Assembly (NCBI GenBank): GCA_020025075.1
Contig: JAHHSR010000001.1
Location: 43,011 to 107,010, forward strand
Reading direction: 5' to 3'
DNA: 64,000 nucleotides
DNA from: Pectinatus sp.
Lineage (GTDB): Bacteria; Bacillota; Negativicutes; Selenomonadales; Selenomonadaceae
How positions within the stretch are numbered: the stretch's first letter is position 1; each line of letters begins with the position of its first letter. The position numbers and the translations under genes were made by a program. Below, piece by piece: positions 1,377 to 40,197 of this stretch. Below the pieces are notes generated by a model. The model worked only from the letters and a program-made list of their open reading frames with translations, searched no databases and was not told the DNA's origin.

Positions 1377-2755
1377 TAATTGAGATTCTCCAATAGTTCG
1401 ATAATTTTTTCCATATGCATGCTGTGCGAGCCTTTAAAAAGCACCGTATCACCAGGCTTCAAAAAATCGCCAAGCCGCTTTGCCAATTCTCGCTGGTTAT
1501 CAAAAGCAAAAGCCTTCACTCCATTGGCCTGTGCCGCTTCAGCAGCCGCTGCTGCAAGCGTGCCAAACGTAAAAAGCGCATCAATCTTCTGCGCAGCGCA
1601 AAATTCGCCAACTTCTTGGTGAGCTTTAAGCTCTGCCGCTCCCAGCTCCTTCATATCGCCAAAGGCAAAAATCCTGCGCGAACGTGCCACTTTTTGCATT
1701 GCTTCTAAAGAGGAGCGGACCGATGAGGGGCTAGCATTATAGGCATCATTGATGAAAAAGTAATCACGCCAAGGCTTTAGCTCAAAGCGCATACCCGAAG
1801 ATTTAAAGGCAGCTAAGCCTTGGACAATGTTTTTTATTTCCACGCCAAGGTGAATCCCTATACAGATTGCCGCCAAAGCGTCATAGACATTGTGCTCACC
1901 AATTAGCGGTATCTCGCAGGCAAACTTTCCTTCAGGACAAAGACAATCAAAAGTCGTCTTTCCTTCTGTAGTGACATGAATATTTTCCGCCATCACGTCA
2001 GCTTTATTTTTGATGCCAAAAGTCATGCAAGGCGCTAAAGAAATATCGCGCATTGCACTGACAAACGGGTCATCGCCGTTTAAAACAGCAAGGCCATTTC
2101 GGGACAAGGAGGCAATAAGCTCCCCTTTGGCACGGGCGATATTTTTCTTCGAGCCCAAAAGCTCCATGTGCGCTTCACCAACATTTATAACTGCACCGAC
2201 ATCCGGGCAAGCAGCCTTACAAAGCGCCTCTATCTGTCCTAAGCCGCGCATTCCCATTTCTACTACTGCCACCTGCGCAGTAGGGCGCAGCGAAAGAAGT
2301 GTTTGGGCAAGGCCGATTTCTGAATTGTAATTTTTAAACGTCTTACAAATAACATATTTTTGCTCCAAGACAGCCGCTGTGAGGTCTTTAGTCGTCGTCT
2401 TGCCGTTCGAGCCTGTAATCGCTACAACGGGCAAGGAAAATTTTTGCCGCCAAGCACCTGCAATAGCAAGATAGGCAGCGAGCGTATCAGAAACTGCAAT
2501 TATAGTAACTGGAGGCAAAGAAATTTCATCTAAGCGATTGTCATCGACAATTAAGACAGCAACACCTTTTTGTGCTGCCTGTTTCAAAAAATCGTGTCCA
2601 TCAAAACGCTCACCGGACAAAGCCAAAAAAGCCATGCCCTTTTCCAGCGTTCTCGTATCAGTGCTTATGCCATTTAACGAAGCTGTCAACGGCATATTTT
2701 CACCTTGCAGCAATTTGCCTTTTGTCCAGCTTAAAAGTTCTTCTATTGTAAACAT
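1376..2755 (-). CDS. murF: UDP-N-acetylmuramoyl-tripeptide--D-alanyl-D-alanine ligase MurF
   Basis: 459 aa with Mur ligase P-loop ITGSNGKTTTKD. Its stop overlaps the mraY start by 1 nt. Canonical dcw position. Confidence 0.93.
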   Translation of the reverse strand: MFTIEELLSWTKGKLLQGENMPLTASLNGISTDTRTLEKGMAFLALSGERFDGHDFLKQAAQKGVAVLIVDDNRLDEISLPPVTIIAVSDTLAAYLAIAGAWRQKFSLPVVAITGSNGKTTTKDLTAAVLEQKYVICKTFKNYNSEIGLAQTLLSLRPTAQVAVVEMGMRGLGQIEALCKAACPDVGAVINVGEAHMELLGSKKNIARAKGELIASLSRNGLAVLNGDDPFVSAMRDISLAPCMTFGIKNKADVMAENIHVTTEGKTTFDCLCPEGKFACEIPLIGEHNVYDALAAICIGIHLGVEIKNIVQGLAAFKSSGMRFELKPWRDYFFINDAYNASPSSVRSSLEAMQKVARSRRIFAFGDMKELGAAELKAHQEVGEFCAAQKIDALFTFGTLAAAAAEAAQANGVKAFAFDNQRELAKRLGDFLKPGDTVLFKGSHSMHMEKIIELLENLN

Positions 2756-2758
2756 ATT

Positions 2759-4252
2759 TCACCCCAGTTTTTCTATAATGGCTGCACGAGCTTCTTCTTT
2801 ATCATCGAAGTGGATTTTTCCCGTCTTTAAAATCTGGTAGTCCTCATGTCCCTTACCGGCAATTACCACTATATCATCTTTTTGGGCCAGCTCAATTGCA
2901 CGCTTAATGGCAGTACGCCTATCAATAATTTTTTCATGCTGATTGCCATGCAGACCTTCTTTTACGCCAGCTTCCACCTCATCTAAAATAAAAGCAGGGT
3001 CCTCTGTTCGTGGATTATCCGAAGTGGCTATAACAACGTCTGACAGTTGTGCCGCCAATTTGCCCATGACTGGTCTTTTGGTCCTGTCGCGGTCACCGCC
3101 ACAGCCAAAGACCGTAATGATTCGCGCCTTGGCTATCTCGCGTGCCGTATGAAGAATGTTTTCCAGTCCATCTGGCGTATGAGCATAATCAACAATGACA
3201 GAAAAATCCTGTTTTTGGCTGGCACGGACGAGTTCAAAACGGCCTGATACACCTTTAAAGTCCTCTAAGACCGCCTTTATTTTTTCTACAGGTATTTTTT
3301 CCGCCACAGCGGCAGCTATGGCGCCAAGTACATTGTAAACGTTAAACAAGCCCGTAATCTGCAATTTAAGCATCAAGGATACCTTTCCTGCCACTTGCAG
3401 CTCCATGCCGCCAGCATGAATCTTAATGTTCTGAGCAAAAAAGTCTGCTTTTTCCTTTGCGCTATAAGAAAAGCTTGGACAAGCTGTATGCTCAAGCATA
3501 ATTTTTGCTGCCTTGTCATCGCTATTGACGACAGCTGTTTTATTTTTCTTTTTATTTTCCGGCGCCGTCAAAGAAGAAAAGAGACGTGCCTTAGCAAGGG
3601 CATAGTTTTCAAACGTTTTATGAAAATCGAGATGGTCGCGGGTTAAATTGGTAAAAATTGCCGTATCAAACTCGCAGCCCGCCACGCGATTAAGTGCCAA
3701 AGCATGCGAAGATACTTCCATCACGACATAATCGCACTTTGCTTTTAGCATGCGGTACAGAATATGCTGCAGGTCAACTACATCTGGCGTCGTATTATTA
3801 ATCGGTAATACTTCATCGCCAATCATAATTTTGATTGTACCAATAACGCCGACTTTATAGCCCGCTTGGCGCAATATGGCTTGCAGCATATAAGAGGTAG
3901 TAGTCTTGCCATTTGTACCCGTGACGCCAATGAGGCGCATCTTGTGTGCAGGATAATCATAAAAAGCCGGCACAATTTTTTCCAGTGCTGCGTGAACATC
4001 AGGCACAATTATTTTCGCAACATTTGCTGGCACCACAACATCTTCTTCGGCTAAAATGGCAGCAGCACCCTTTTCTAAGACCATGGGAACAAAATCCTTG
4101 CCGTTGCTGACCGTCCCCTTAATGCAGGCAAAAAGAGAACCCTCTACTACCTTTCTCGAATCGTGCTCAATGCCTGTTATCTGCTGATTTAAATCATTTT
4201 CCAAATTCGCTTTTGGCAAAAGCGATATTAAATCTCGTATAGTCTTCACCAA
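2759..4252 (-). CDS. murE: UDP-N-acetylmuramoyl-L-alanyl-D-glutamate--2,6-diaminopimelate ligase MurE
   Basis: 497 aa with P-loop GVTGTNGKTTTSY and the DNPR motif (SDNPRTEDP) typical of meso-DAP-adding MurE. Confidence 0.93.
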   Translation of the reverse strand: MVKTIRDLISLLPKANLENDLNQQITGIEHDSRKVVEGSLFACIKGTVSNGKDFVPMVLEKGAAAILAEEDVVVPANVAKIIVPDVHAALEKIVPAFYDYPAHKMRLIGVTGTNGKTTTSYMLQAILRQAGYKVGVIGTIKIMIGDEVLPINNTTPDVVDLQHILYRMLKAKCDYVVMEVSSHALALNRVAGCEFDTAIFTNLTRDHLDFHKTFENYALAKARLFSSLTAPENKKKNKTAVVNSDDKAAKIMLEHTACPSFSYSAKEKADFFAQNIKIHAGGMELQVAGKVSLMLKLQITGLFNVYNVLGAIAAAVAEKIPVEKIKAVLEDFKGVSGRFELVRASQKQDFSVIVDYAHTPDGLENILHTAREIAKARIITVFGCGGDRDRTKRPVMGKLAAQLSDVVIATSDNPRTEDPAFILDEVEAGVKEGLHGNQHEKIIDRRTAIKRAIELAQKDDIVVIAGKGHEDYQILKTGKIHFDDKEEARAAIIEKLG

Positions 4253-4284
4253 TAATGCCTCTTTTCTATGAATTTAAGGCTGGC

Positions 4285-4311
4285 AAAAAAGGAGCCGTTC
4301 ATAACGACTCC
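4285..4311 (-). terminator. Candidate intrinsic terminator between ftsL and murE
   Basis: Minus strand reads GGAGUCGUU-AUG-AACGGCUCC (9 bp including one G.U) followed directly by UUUUUU (A-run 4285-4290 on the plus strand). Confidence 0.5.
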
Positions 4312-4346
4312 TCAAATAACCAGCTTTAATTATGCCGTTCAAACGC

Positions 4347-5914: not shown

Positions 5915-6568
5915 TTAAAATATTGTCAAATTATCCCTAATCGTTATTACTTCACTAGCTATATTCAAATTGACAGGCGCATTTCTAAGGCGAATATCAT
6001 CTAGCTTTATATATTGCAAATCGTGTGTTTTTTGCCGAAAAGCAGGTGCATTTACCGCCTTCCAGCTCAAATTGATTACATTTTCCTGCTTAGCCGCATA
6101 AGAACGCAATTTTTCAAGCATCGCATAGCACAATTTATAATCTGCATCGCTCAGCTCATTGGGAGGCAATTGCTGGGCTAAAGACAAATTATAGCTCTTG
6201 CTCTTTTGATACAATTTTTCCAAGCGATACTTATACTGCTCCAAACTTATCTGCCTGTCATTAAAGGCTGCAAAGTCATCATTATAGCACGACCAGATAT
6301 AATCAGCCTTTTGAACCTCTTTTTTATAGCCTTCATACCAGGTAATAAAGACTGGCTGTTCAACCAAAATCTGCATCTGGCGCTGCTGCCTTAAAGCTGC
6401 ATTATCATGCTGCATGGCAAACAGCTGCCAAAAAGAAAAAGCTGCACTGCCAGCAATCAAAAGCGAAAAAAACATAAAAATACGGCGGCTTGGCAAATAC
6501 CGATAGCCAGCATACAGCACGGCTATTGTTGCTATGGCAATAAAATATTTTAAATATAGGTGGTTCAT
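5915..6568 (-). CDS. Hypothetical membrane-anchored protein
   Basis: 217-aa ORF with two N-terminal hydrophobic segments and then a soluble domain. No family recognised. Confidence 0.45.
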   Translation of the reverse strand: MNHLYLKYFIAIATIAVLYAGYRYLPSRRIFMFFSLLIAGSAAFSFWQLFAMQHDNAALRQQRQMQILVEQPVFITWYEGYKKEVQKADYIWSCYNDDFAAFNDRQISLEQYKYRLEKLYQKSKSYNLSLAQQLPPNELSDADYKLCYAMLEKLRSYAAKQENVINLSWKAVNAPAFRQKTHDLQYIKLDDIRLRNAPVNLNIASEVITIRDNLTIF

Positions 6569-6813
6569 TATCTCTTTTCCTTTTTATTAACGGCAACTGC
6601 CAAAGCTCGGCGTTTCCGCAAAAAATACAATCTCATTCTATTTTAACAAAATAACCCTCCTTTTTCAAAAAACTTTTGCTGCCATTCAAATACCTTAAAA
6701 AGAGTTGTTATTTGTAAAAATTTTTTATTAATTTGCATTTTCTTCACAAAATGATTACAAATGCCCTAAATACTGCTATAATATAAGAAAAAGTTGTACT
6801 AATCAACAGATAG

Positions 6814-7158
6814 GTGATTTTGATGATTTACGGTAAAATATCGCAGGAGGAATTTGACGCTGCCGAGCGTGCCTATGAAAATTGCGGCAAGCCGGTTTCT
6901 AGCCTTGAACAAAAAAAGGAGTTACCAAAAAAAAAAATGCGTCGTGGCGATATCCTCGCTTTGTTCGTCGCTTTTATTTGCCTTATCGCTGGCACTTTTT
7001 TCTCGGATACATCAGTTTTATTCTTGAGCATTTCTCTTCTGCTTTGGATTTTAAAAGACCATCTGCACTTTGCCCGCGGCACGGAAGAACTGGCAAAAGC
7101 GATGCGTGCTTTTAGTATCATGCTCTTTTTTGGCGCAATTCTCTTATGTATTTTATAA
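6814..7158 (+). CDS. Hypothetical small membrane protein (start may be ATG 6823)
   Basis: 114-aa ORF with a GTG start. AGGTG lies 6 nt before the in-frame ATG at 6823. Three hydrophobic segments. No family recognised. Confidence 0.4.
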   Translation: MILMIYGKISQEEFDAAERAYENCGKPVSSLEQKKELPKKKMRRGDILALFVAFICLIAGTFFSDTSVLFLSISLLLWILKDHLHFARGTEELAKAMRAFSIMLFFGAILLCIL

Positions 7159-38328: not shown

Positions 38329-38625
38329 TCAATGTCTGCGGCGCAATTCTTCCAGTTTAGCCAAGACATCGGCATCAAGACGGTCCGAAAGAGAATTTCT
38401 TTGAAAAGAAATTTTTTGAGGGACGATATATTCGCGCTTTAATTTCTTTTTTGCCGCCTTGATTCTGCTTCTGAGCTCCTTTACCGTAATGCGGTATGCA
38501 CCGGCTCCCAAGATAGCACTTTGCTCCGCGCCATCTGAAGTCACTACGAAGACATCCTTTCCTTCTCGCACTGCCTGATAGGCGAGCCTTTCAATATAGC
38601 TATCTGCTGTTTCTTTGGCCTTAGT
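38329..38625 (-). CDS. yacP: YacP/Rae1-like NYN-domain ribonuclease, exon 2 (predicted)
   Basis: TKAKETADSYIERLAYQAVREGKDVFVVTSDGAEQSAILGAGAYRITVKEL... matches the C-terminal half of YacP/Rae1 (TKENETADERIEKLA...VATSD in B. subtilis, from memory). Confidence 0.8.
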   Translation of the reverse strand, partial: TKAKETADSYIERLAYQAVREGKDVFVVTSDGAEQSAILGAGAYRITVKELRSRIKAAKKKLKREYIVPQKISFQRNSLSDRLDADVLAKLEELRRRH

Positions 38626-39055
38626 CTGAGTTCCTTCAGAGAAGGGGAATATTCGCACCGGGACGCTGCTCCCGCTGCAGTCTTTTATAGACTTCTTTAG
38701 CTTTCGCTAAAGCATAGACTATATCTTTTCCTTATCCTTTTTAAGGACTTAGGCGGAACCGCTTCGGCTATCAAAAACTTATAGCCTACTTCCACTGGGG
38801 AATAGTCGTTGAACTTTCTCCTGTTCGGAGCTTAGCTGCTGATTGGCAATTAAAAAGCGTTTAGGATTTAACCTTGCACCATCTGACCATTTTTTTCTGC
38901 TTTCGCCACCATCGCGTTCAGGTTTCTTTCAACCTCGCGCTGTGGTATGGCCAGCTTTACGCGTTTCCAGCAATTCAATTCCTTTATGAGATAGCTTTCG
39001 CTACATACTCGTTTCCGAATATGCTTACTATTTTGCCACTTTAGCCGTAGCTTTA
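38626..39055 (-). ncRNA. Group I self-splicing intron, ORF-less (about 430 nt)
   Basis: Sense strand carries P AAUUGCUGGAAA (38975-38964), Q AAUCAGCAGC (38844-38835), R GUUCAACGACUA (38814-38803) and S AAGAUAUAGUCU (38727-38716). P4 UUGCUG/CAGCAG and P7 GACUA/UAGUC pair. P1 has a U.G wobble at the exon end, the 3' terminal nucleotide is G, and there are several GAAA-capped hairpins. Confidence 0.85.
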
Positions 39056-39283
39056 ATAAATCACTTCAAAGTTCTTTCCTAATTTTTCAACAGAACCATT
39101 TGAATCAGTATAAAGAGCATCAAAAACCACCGATGTAAAATAATTTTCATAGGCACTATATTCTCTGAGCATTTCAATGAGCTTATCGCGTGCATAGGCG
39201 AAATCATCTCGCCAACGCATCAATTCTGGCCAGCAATTTAAGACATTGTATCCATCTACAATCATATGCGCCCGCATTGCCAT
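39056..39283 (-). CDS. yacP: YacP/Rae1-like NYN-domain ribonuclease, exon 1 (predicted)
   Basis: MAMRAHMIVDGYNVLNCWPEL...NFEVIY is the N-terminal half of the NYN domain (DGYN motif). In the unspliced frame TAA follows immediately (39055-39053). Lies downstream of rlmB, as yacO-yacP in Bacillus. Confidence 0.8.
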
Positions 39284-39294
39284 TCACCGCCCCA

Positions 39295-40197
39295 TCATTT
39301 ACCGCTGCGCTGCTTTAGTGCCTCATACATCAAAATAGCCGCCGCGTTAGAAGCATTGAGTGAATTTACGCGACCGCACATGGGAATCCGAACTAAAAAG
39401 TCACACGCCTTTTGCACCTGCTGTGAGATGCCTTTGCCTTCACTGCCAATAACCAAAACAAGTGGTCCCTTTAAATCAGCTTCATAATAAGGCATCGTAC
39501 CAGAACTTTCTGCCCCTGTTACCCAAAAGCCATTCTTTTTGAGCTTTTCCAAGGTCATGAGCAGGCTATTGACGCGCACTACCGGCATATACTCTACTGC
39601 ACCAGCAGAAATCATCGAAACAGTTGAAGAAAGTGGGCAACTGCGCCGCTTGGGAATGAGTACGGCATCGGCACCGGCAGCATCTGCCGTCCGGATAATG
39701 GCGCCAAGATTTTGCGGGTCCTCAATTTCATCAAGCATAATTAAAAACGGCGCACGGCCAAGGCGTTCTGCCTTTATAAGGACATCATCTAAATCAGCAT
39801 AATCAATGGGAGCTGTATAAGCGGCAATTCCCTGATGATGCTGCGTACCGGTTAAAAGGTCTAATTTTTTGCGATTGAGCGTATTGACAACGACATGATT
39901 TTTGCGCGCAAGGAAAATTATTTCCTGCAGGGAACCGCCATGCGCGTTTTCAGCGACAATTACCTTATTTATGGAACGTCCATTTTTTAGAGCCTCCCGC
40001 ACAGCATTGCGGCCGTAAATCAAATCGGGAGAAGGTGCTATAGCTTCATTTGGCAAAGAAATAGGTGCCGCTGCCTTCATAGATTCTTTGGGCGGCCTTT
40101 TTTCCTCGCCTTTATCATATCTTGCCGCCGAACGGCGGCTAGCAGGCTTTGACTGCTTATGCTTTATCTGTTTTTTCATCCTTTTTTTCCTTTCCAT
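39295..40197 (-). CDS. rlmB: 23S rRNA (guanosine-2'-O)-methyltransferase RlmB (TrmH family, YacO type)
   Basis: [34 protein letters not shown] and [14 protein letters not shown] (SPOUT motifs). Has a basic N-terminal extension of about 60 aa. Confidence 0.9.

Follow-up and report, generated by a model that had tools for sequence, protein, structure and literature searches.

A 430-nt group IA2 intron of the IStron ribozyme family splits the yacP/rae1 gene of Pectinatus sp. and is probably a decayed IStron

The stretch of DNA analysed here (the window) comprises 64,000 nucleotides (64 kb) of a Pectinatus sp. genome (GCA_020025075.1, contig JAHHSR010000001.1, positions 43,011 to 107,010). In this window the yacP/rae1 gene, which encodes a ribonuclease of the YacP/Rae1 family, is divided by an insert of 430 nt that holds no open reading frame (ORF) of more than 48 aa and has stops in all three frames. 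The insert is almost certainly a genuine group I intron of the ribozyme family found in IStrons. With moderate confidence, we further read it as a group IA2 intron of the group A IStron family that has been left without its transposon half, that is, as a decayed IStron. IStrons are group I introns fused to insertion sequences (IS) of the IS200/IS605 or IS607 type, and the ribozymes of group A belong to subgroup IA2 (PMC4227781).

As annotated, the host gene appears as two minus-strand ORFs, one of 76 codons (39283..39053) and one of 109 codons (38658..38329), with 430 nt between the exons. The rlmB gene (40197..39295, minus strand) lies directly upstream of the exon-1 ORF. A first-pass annotation made from the letters of this DNA had proposed that an ORF-less insert of about 430 nt splits yacP/rae1, and this is borne out by the exons. 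Excising 39055..38626 fuses ...GAA GTG ATT TAT to ACT AAG GCC... with the reading frame kept, and the joined exons encode a 174-aa protein that covers the Pfam profile PF05991 (NYN_YacP) from end to end (positions 1-166 of 166, 163 bits). The ligated exon junction expected from this excision is ...GTGATTTAT↓ACTAAGGCC (here and below, the arrow marks a splice junction or insertion point). Exon 1 can be aligned to intronless orthologues as far as FEV[IV]Y, and the 174-aa product is gap-free over the junction (FEV[IV]Y↓TK.KETADSYIERLAY) when compared with uninterrupted homologues, to which it is 71% and 60% identical. One uninterrupted homologue shares the gene order guaB-thyX-rlmB-yacP-rimP-nusA-ylxR-L7Ae-infB with the window. 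The intronless allele L202 has the order guaB-thyX-rlmB-yacP-rimP-nusA and shows the empty site GTTTAT↓ACC. All of the best 120 YacP homologues listed are full length, with the window's own exon-2 ORF as the sole exception, and the nearest named ones come from Pectinatus, Anaerovibrio, Selenomonas and Megamonas. Moreover, exon 1 and an identical intron prefix are present in contigs of two independent sequencing runs; hence the insertion is real DNA and no assembly artefact. Among recorded proteins, neither the rlmB product nor the 76-aa exon-1 ORF has an entry, but a 74-aa variant of the exon-1 ORF does.

Regarding the identity of the insert, the Rfam model RF00028 (Intron_gpI) matches it over the full model (1-253) at 38695-39028 of the minus strand, with 75.6 bits (E 2.1e-17) against a gathering score of 50 bits. 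This is the sole Rfam match within the window, and its score falls inside the range of 51-94 bits spanned by the relatives described below. The group I assignment of the first-pass annotation had rested on the elements P, Q, R and S; these strings, and that of the guide sequence, are found exactly where it had placed them, and all the conserved core elements are at or near consensus. Compared with shuffled sequences, the minimum free energy fold reaches a z-score of -3.5, and it recovers most of the local hairpins.

A model of 24 helices was written, and 19 of them were tested on a MAFFT alignment of the window intron and 17 relatives with mutual identity below 90%. In the 92 pairs of this model, 93.9% of the cells form a standard pair in the 18 sequences, compared with 35-41% when the 3' partners are slid by 1-3 columns. 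Pairs changed on both sides number 56 of 92, compared with 13-18 for the slid partners, and all 500 column shuffles fell short of the observed value on every measure. Every one of the 92 modelled pairs forms in the window sequence, by construction and by check; taking the structure from a member of the alignment somewhat favours the percentage of pairing, and the compensatory counts less so. P7 was bracketed apart from P3 in this count, the core being a pseudoknot in which P3 and P7 cross. The alignment misplaced the 5' exon and P1 of the window, and P1 was tabulated separately; five to six automatic calls of intron boundaries were corrected by hand. P2.1 and the distal part of P8 do not align reliably across the relatives and are left unsupported.

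Most of the pairings drawn at first pass are retained in this model. P4 (UUGCUG/CAGCAG) is 98% paired and nearly invariant, and P7 (GACUA/UAGUC) is invariant in 18 of 18 sequences. The GAAA-capped hairpins are all present, namely P2, UAGC-GAAA-GCUA and CUUUAGC-GAAA-GCUAAAG, of which the first and the last are 100% paired with compensatory changes. P5 is fully (100%) paired and P5a 98.6% paired; compensatory changes occur in P5, in all eight pairs of P5a and in three of the four pairs of P5c. The relatives also show covariation in P3, where four of the five pairs are compensatory. The 3' strand of P3, on the other hand, had been misplaced: covariation assigns the UUCC next to element R to P7.1 (UUCC 38802-38799 with GGAA 38793-38790), and the true P3' is GUUCC at 38759-38755. 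This puts P7.1 and P7.2 in the interval from P7 to P3', the canonical arrangement of IA introns. The earlier suggestion of an IA-like architecture was thus right in its class and wrong in setting the extra hairpins between P3' and P7'. Together with the extended P9 (P9, P9.1 and P9.2, supported by covariation), this arrangement places the intron in subgroup IA2. P5c also contains a tetraloop-receptor-like AAGGUUAAAUCCUAA (38860-38875, intron nt 181-196) that is almost invariant in the family. In several relatives it reads UAUGG...CCUAAG, which we take to be the canonical 11-nt receptor for GAAA tetraloops. The three GAAA loops (P2, P2.1 and P9) could dock at this element.

The 5' splice site is defined by P1, in which UUUAU↓UA pairs with UAGUAAG and the exon-terminal U stands opposite a G. 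This helix had already been drawn at first pass, and it is now backed by the covariation of target and guide across the relatives: TTGAT occurs with UAGUCAG (UAGUUAG in one relative), TTTAT, ATTAT and GTTAT with UAGUAAG, and CCTAT, TCTAT and ACTAT with UAGUAGG. The conserved AAAAUAGUAAG could in principle also pair with the P7 strand ACUAUU. This option was set aside, since AAAAUAGUAAG covaries with the target pentanucleotide and is therefore read as the guide sequence. Most relatives start with TAA or TAG, as does the window intron, and an in-frame stop close to the 5' splice site is a known trait of many bacterial and phage introns (PMC3984707). At the 3' end, P9.0 would consist of CA paired with UG at 38714-38713. 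A P10 helix joining the guide region to the 3' exon was sought and not found, in keeping with 3' flanks that vary among IStrons.

Relatives at 65-80% identity were collected by BLAST against phage records and by pattern scans of viral, genome and metagenome collections. The closest, about 70-76% identical, are CdISt1-type and related group A IStrons or derivatives of them. In most relatives the gene directly downstream of the ribozyme encodes TnpB (Pfam OrfB_IS605 and Cas12f1-like TNB), and some also carry an IS200-like Y1 transposase (Pfam Y1_Tnp). Among the 96 family copies whose downstream sequence extends for 1.5 kb or more, a TnpB just downstream is full in 64, partial in 24 and lacking in 8, proportions that are biased by the search patterns chosen. 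Group A IStrons are defined by an IA2 ribozyme with P7.1, P7.2 and P9.0-9.2, by insertion 3' of TTGAT, ATTAT or TTTAT, by a TCAG 3' terminus and by a subterminal palindrome at each end, of which the left lies within the P1 stem-loop (PMC4227781). The insertion site GATTTAT↓ and the end ...AACTCAG↓ of the window intron match these boundaries. Furthermore, the GAAUAU that follows P9.2 aligns with GAACGA or GAACAA of the relatives and is one of the five motif variants that mark the start of the IS module in IStrons (PMC4227781). From there on, the window tail reads UCC-CCUUC-UCU-GAAGG-AACUCAG, and in full relatives the corresponding tail, motif included, reads GAACGA-C-AACCUC...[tnpA/tnpB, guide RNA, palindrome]...GAGGUU-CAG. 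In full IStrons, tnpA/tnpB, the guide RNA and the right-end palindrome thus all lie within the inverted-repeat (IR) stem (AACCUC...GAGGUU), whereas the 5-bp stem of the window intron encloses UCU only and no IS module.

In comparison with the named group A IStrons (CdISt1 of Clostridioides difficile, MfISt1 of Megamonas, FnISt1 and FnISt2 of Fusobacterium; PMC4227781), the ribozyme is about 70% identical over the aligned core, and the covarying helices, the guide-read insertion 3' of TTGAT/ATTAT/TTTAT, the TCAG end, the GAAYRW motif after P9.2 and the terminal IR-type stem are shared, as are sites inside protein-coding genes of Firmicutes including Negativicutes. What sets the window intron apart is the lack of tnpA, tnpB, the guide-RNA region and the palindromes, and a length of 430 nt, below the 482-2582 nt reported for IStrons (PMC4227781). 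No tblastn match to TnpA or TnpB is found anywhere in the 64-kb window, nor is a second copy of the intron. No homing endonuclease gene is encoded in the intron, and the flanking genes are rlmB and rimP. The subterminal palindromes (GTGACTTTAGTCRTG and variants, at both ends of full elements) are absent from the intron, and their places are taken by a 5-bp hairpin in the P1 loop and by the terminal stem with its 3-nt loop. Relatives have a left end that is longer by about 25-45 nt; for comparison, a CdISt1-type left end reads ...GCTACG[CACACTYGTGACTTTAGTCRTGAG...]GCTAAAATAGTCAG. The two remaining hairpins (GCUAC...GUGGC and CCUUC...GAAGG) are unlike each other, and in the IS200/IS605 mechanism the Y1 transposase is expected to bind similar hairpins at both ends (PMC4227781). 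The coordinates of these features are collected in Table 1.

Table 1. Features of the interrupted yacP/rae1 gene and of its intron (window coordinates; pairing and compensatory values refer to the 18-sequence alignment)
Feature	Position	Strand	Description
yacP/rae1 exon 1	39056..39283	-	76 codons, end ...GAA GTG ATT TAT; Pfam NYN_YacP positions 1-72
yacP/rae1 exon 2	38329..38625	-	98 codons and stop, start ACU AAG GCC; NYN_YacP positions 73-166
Group IA2 intron	38626..39055	-	430 nt; Rfam RF00028 match and exact exon junction
TTTAT, last five exon bases	39056..39060	-	Group A IStron/IS200-IS605 target pentanucleotide; P1 5' strand
UAA stop	39053..39055	-	Intron nt 1-3, in frame with exon 1
P1 extension hairpin GCUAC-GGCUAAA-GUGGC	39035..39051	-	Sits where full IStrons hold the left-end subterminal palindrome
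Internal guide sequence UAGUAAG	39024..39030	-	P1 3' strand; G 39028 opposite the exon-terminal U
P2 (8 bp, GAAA loop) and P2.1 (4 bp, GAAA loop)	38992..39023	-	P2 100% paired, 7/8 compensatory
P3 5' strand GGAAU	38978..38982	-	Pairs with 38759-38755; 100% paired, 4/5 compensatory
P4-P5-P6 region	38836..38973	-	P4 UUGCUG/CAGCAG enclosing P5, P5a, P5b, A-rich stretch, P5c
P6 hairpin CUCC-GAACA-GGAG	38818..38830	-	100% paired, 3/4 compensatory
P7 5' strand GACUA (in element R)	38803..38807	-	Invariant 18/18; pairs with 38721-38717
P7.1 (UUCC/GGAA) and P7.2 (GGCUAU/AUAGCC)	38766..38802	-	Both 100% paired; P7.2 6/6 compensatory
P3 3' strand GUUCC (true P3')	38755..38759	-	Assigned by covariation
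P8	38730..38753	-	Basal 3 bp 83% paired; distal part too variable
P7 3' strand UAGUC (in element S)	38717..38721	-	Partner of GACUA
P9 (GAAA loop), P9.1, P9.2	38655..38712	-	P9 100% paired, 6/7 compensatory; P9.2 92%, 7/8
GAAUAU motif	38649..38654	-	After P9.2; aligns with GAACGA or GAACAA of relatives
Terminal stem-loop CCUUC-UCU-GAAGG	38633..38645	-	Counterpart of the IR stem in full IStrons
UCAG 3' terminus	38626..38629	-	Terminal G and proposed P9.0; equals group A IStron right-end terminus

The closest relative of this intron is itself free of ORFs. This element (L154; JAHHSQ010000017, ~6560-7060, Pectinatus sp. MAG060) shows 76% identity by BLAST, and a neighbour-joining tree joins it to the window intron with a bootstrap value of 74. 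It also belongs to the Selenomonadaceae and shares the layout: it begins after ATTAT↓, has no palindromes, and closes with GAACGA, a 7-bp stem and the terminus. It differs in its host gene, in its length of 459 nt and in ending with ACAG↓. It lies in codon 15 of a DUF6056 membrane-protein gene, whose frame is restored by its removal. The 30-kb contig of this element holds a second, different copy (L150), also ORF-less in appearance, after TTCTAT and with a minimal P1 loop. Another ORF-less relative (L198; CAAFQR010000106, ~6470-6940, Veillonellaceae bacterium HGM14191) is 471 nt long, ends in TTCAG and interrupts uvrB at ...EYFVSYYD↓YYQPEAY.... By reading frame its 5' exon ends in C (TATGAC↓), which would give a C-G pair at the splice site (UGAC with GUUA) and not the U-G wobble.

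ORF-less members are also known among published IStrons. Copies of BcISt1 (group B, IS607-type) in emetic Bacillus cereus have lost the whole ORF module and kept only the IR stem-loop, a layout comparable to that of the window intron; they are inherited vertically at fixed loci, and the loss has been reproduced experimentally (PMC4227781). BcISt1 differs in its GG-ending target, CGG terminus, long AU-rich IR, unusual 5' splice site and less similar ribozyme. An ORF-less palindrome-associated transposable element (PATE) with IStron ends has been described in C. difficile, and related introns are reported to have repeatedly gained and lost genes (bioRxiv 10.1101/2023.11.20.567912). More distant are the IA2 introns of phages (Staphylococcus Twort-like, Bacillus, Listeria) and the recA, nrdE and nrdF introns of the B. 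cereus group. They are of the same subgroup with P4-P6 70-80% similar, and like the window intron they lie inside protein-coding genes with an in-frame stop near the 5' splice site. On the other hand, they occupy conserved sites of DNA-metabolism genes, move by means of homing endonucleases and show neither IS200/IS605-type boundaries nor the IStron tail.

Taken together, the TTTAT target, the TCAG end, the GAAUAU motif, the IA2 fold and the IR-like stem are all present in one element, and for this reason it is read as a decayed IStron. The covariation of target and guide, and the placement of the nearest relative in an unrelated gene, argue for a transposon-like lineage and not for a homing intron. 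Several points weigh against this reading. TTTAT and CAG are no independent proof of a transposon past, since the ribozyme itself needs them for P1, P9.0 and the terminal G. Two separate clean losses are required, one of the left palindrome and one of the IS module, and the deletion history is deduced with no close full-length parent to compare. The window intron and its nearest relative fall among IStrons in the neighbour-joining tree only under midpoint rooting. Furthermore, the searches for transposases and extra copies covered 64 kb of the genome, and splicing of the yacP intron is an expectation from group I chemistry and from other IStrons.

The search for a parent was made in collections that did not include the window's own genome, and no close full-length parent was found in them. 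A scan of genome contigs with a P4'-P6-P7 pattern gave 76 loci (best identity 76%), a lineage-specific 34-nt signature had no matches in metagenomes and viral contigs, and a broader signature gave at least 120 loci, the best of them 73-80% identical; the generic R...S pattern used in the viral scan was too unspecific.

The most serious alternative, although we consider it rather unlikely, is that the insert is a stand-alone IA2 intron with no transposon in its past and belongs to a lineage sister or ancestral to the IStron ribozymes. It would have entered yacP by reverse splicing or recombination through its UAGUAAG guide, and it would splice in the same way. The absence of tnpA, tnpB and palindromes is what such an intron would show, and the ribozyme requires the TTTAT and CAG ends in either case. 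There are also precedents: stand-alone IA2 introns related to IStrons occur in Fusobacterium, next to TTGAT, and in Turicibacter (PMC4227781), and three are reported in C. difficile 630 (bioRxiv 10.1101/2023.11.20.567912). These are of the same structural class and ORF-less. However, Tourasse et al. set such relatives apart precisely by a missing IR stem-loop and by 3' ends different from those of IStrons (PMC4227781), whereas the window tail has the GAAUAU motif, a stem matching the IStron IR stem and the TCAG terminus. Moreover, two ORF-less relatives in unrelated genes call for a mobility that a bare intron lacks, and decay of the IS module is common, as judged by the partial TnpB in 24 of 96 copies. 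The clade of the window intron and its nearest relative could be basal if the tree were rooted there; the stand-alone explanation is kept because no close parent was found, because the rooting is arbitrary and because of the ribozyme's own need for TTTAT and CAG.

In a related scenario, which we find improbable, the common ancestor of the window intron and L154 was already bare, and the ribozyme moved between Selenomonadaceae genes unaided by any self-encoded protein. It would have spread by reverse splicing into RNA or DNA bearing a short T-rich motif read by the guide, with fixation afterwards.

It is a shade less probable still that the element is a non-autonomous miniature IStron, similar to a PATE, and that an IS200/IS605 TnpA encoded elsewhere in the genome continues to move it in trans. 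Its ends do carry the cleavage-site motifs of the family (TTTAT↓ and TCAG↓), the ORF-less PATE of C. difficile has IStron ends, and most CdiIStrons lack TnpA and yet occupy many sites. Against this, the GTGACTTTAGTCRTG-like palindromes to which TnpA binds are absent, the two terminal hairpins are dissimilar, and the 64-kb window holds one copy and no transposase. The metagenomic assemblies bear on this point in both directions. In Logan assemblies of the two sequencing runs the contigs (L001, L324, L325) end within the intron: the left ones stop at intron nt 132 and 238, and one right contig begins at nt 244. From these breaks, stretches of 31 nt or more of the intron core seem to occur more than once in the two samples, whether within the same genome or as parts of other IStrons. 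Such breaks would fit repeated copies of the element, but they are equally explained by core stretches shared with other IStrons of the metagenome, as intron nt 212-258 (~47 nt) are identical to a Mitsuokella element (L137).

Least probable of all is a splicing-dead relic within a yacP pseudogene: the element has no means of maintaining itself, and yacP/rae1 may be dispensable in Bacillus subtilis, but its core is at or near consensus with an Rfam score within the range of its relatives, all 92 modelled pairs form, and both exons are open and yield a product that matches the Pfam profile end to end and gap-free.

Under the favoured decayed-IStron reading, an IStron would have inserted as DNA immediately 3' of TTTAT in yacP and would later have lost tnpA, tnpB, the guide-RNA region and both palindromes, leaving the ribozyme and a short terminal stem. 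The gene would be transcribed, probably together with the adjacent rlmB, and the guide UAGUAAG would form a helix with UUUAU and the intron UA, in which a G faces the last U of the exon. The first attack, at this U, would come from a free guanosine docked at P7; the terminal G of ...UCAG would then enter the same site, and the exons would be ligated to ...GUG AUU UAU↓ACU AAG..., giving an mRNA for the full-length 174-aa NYN ribonuclease. Ribosomes on unspliced RNA would halt at the UAA of intron nt 1-3 and thus be kept out of the ribozyme. Splicing has been demonstrated in vivo for related IStrons. The intron would persist because splicing makes it nearly harmless, and it is probably immobile, given that it has no transposase, no homing endonuclease and no transposase-binding palindromes.

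In the unspliced rae1 mRNA, the reading frame closes with UAA precisely at the 5' splice site (window 39053-39060). Reported cleavage sites of Rae1 in mRNA lie upstream of stalled ribosomes and, in addition, 12 nt upstream of the stop codon (PMC12407103). Judging from the position of this stop, a feedback of Rae1 onto its own unspliced message is conceivable.

Other observations concern the IS modules of the family. Two types of TnpB are found behind closely related ribozymes: one of ~370 aa starting with ...KAYKFRIYPNK (loci L056, L078, L126, L131) and one of ~420 aa starting with MYLTMKQQVKQL (L129, L195, L016, L110). The two types are intermixed in the ribozyme tree, which is consistent with an exchange of IS modules between introns. 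In addition, a CdISt1-type IStron with TnpB and remnants of tnpA was found at 2453-4346 of the unannotated record of Clostridioides phage ES-S-0173-01 (CP067352, L122), where it splits a large ORF resembling, from its sequence, the terminase large subunit. The flanks of this IStron are the same as those of a chromosomal locus of C. difficile (L199), and the phage may therefore be a prophage.

As to novelty, the first-pass annotation had presented the insert as a rare case comparable to the introns of td, recA and nrdE, and as one without precedent in yacP/rae1 or in Negativicutes. The lack of a precedent in yacP/rae1 stands, as no published intron in yacP/rae1 or in NYN genes was found in the literature searched. 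The claims of rarity as a stand-alone intron and of no Negativicutes precedent are not supported, because its relatives are IStrons, a family common in Firmicutes, and these are listed in Megasphaera, Megamonas and Selenomonas, within a survey of 294 full-length IStrons of which 58% are intragenic (PMC4227781). The kind of element, the ribozyme family, the location in protein-coding genes and the occurrence in Negativicutes were thus already established, and the current understanding of introns and of IS200/IS605 elements is unchanged by the yacP intron.

What it adds is one more case of a ribozyme intron in a conserved chromosomal housekeeping gene, here the gene of a YacP/Rae1-family ribonuclease. 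The two yacP fragments should be annotated as a single gene rather than as a pseudogene, and split genes in metagenome-assembled genomes of Firmicutes (such as the uvrB case) are worth screening with the group I model. For the family, the intron would illustrate how much of an IStron is left once the transposon half is gone. Its 430 nt put it below every IStron in the 2014 survey, and it would be a natural minimal version of the ribozyme. Its right end has a 13-nt terminal stem-loop and AACUCAG in place of ~200 nt, which makes it relevant to the published finding that trimming of the right end raises splicing.

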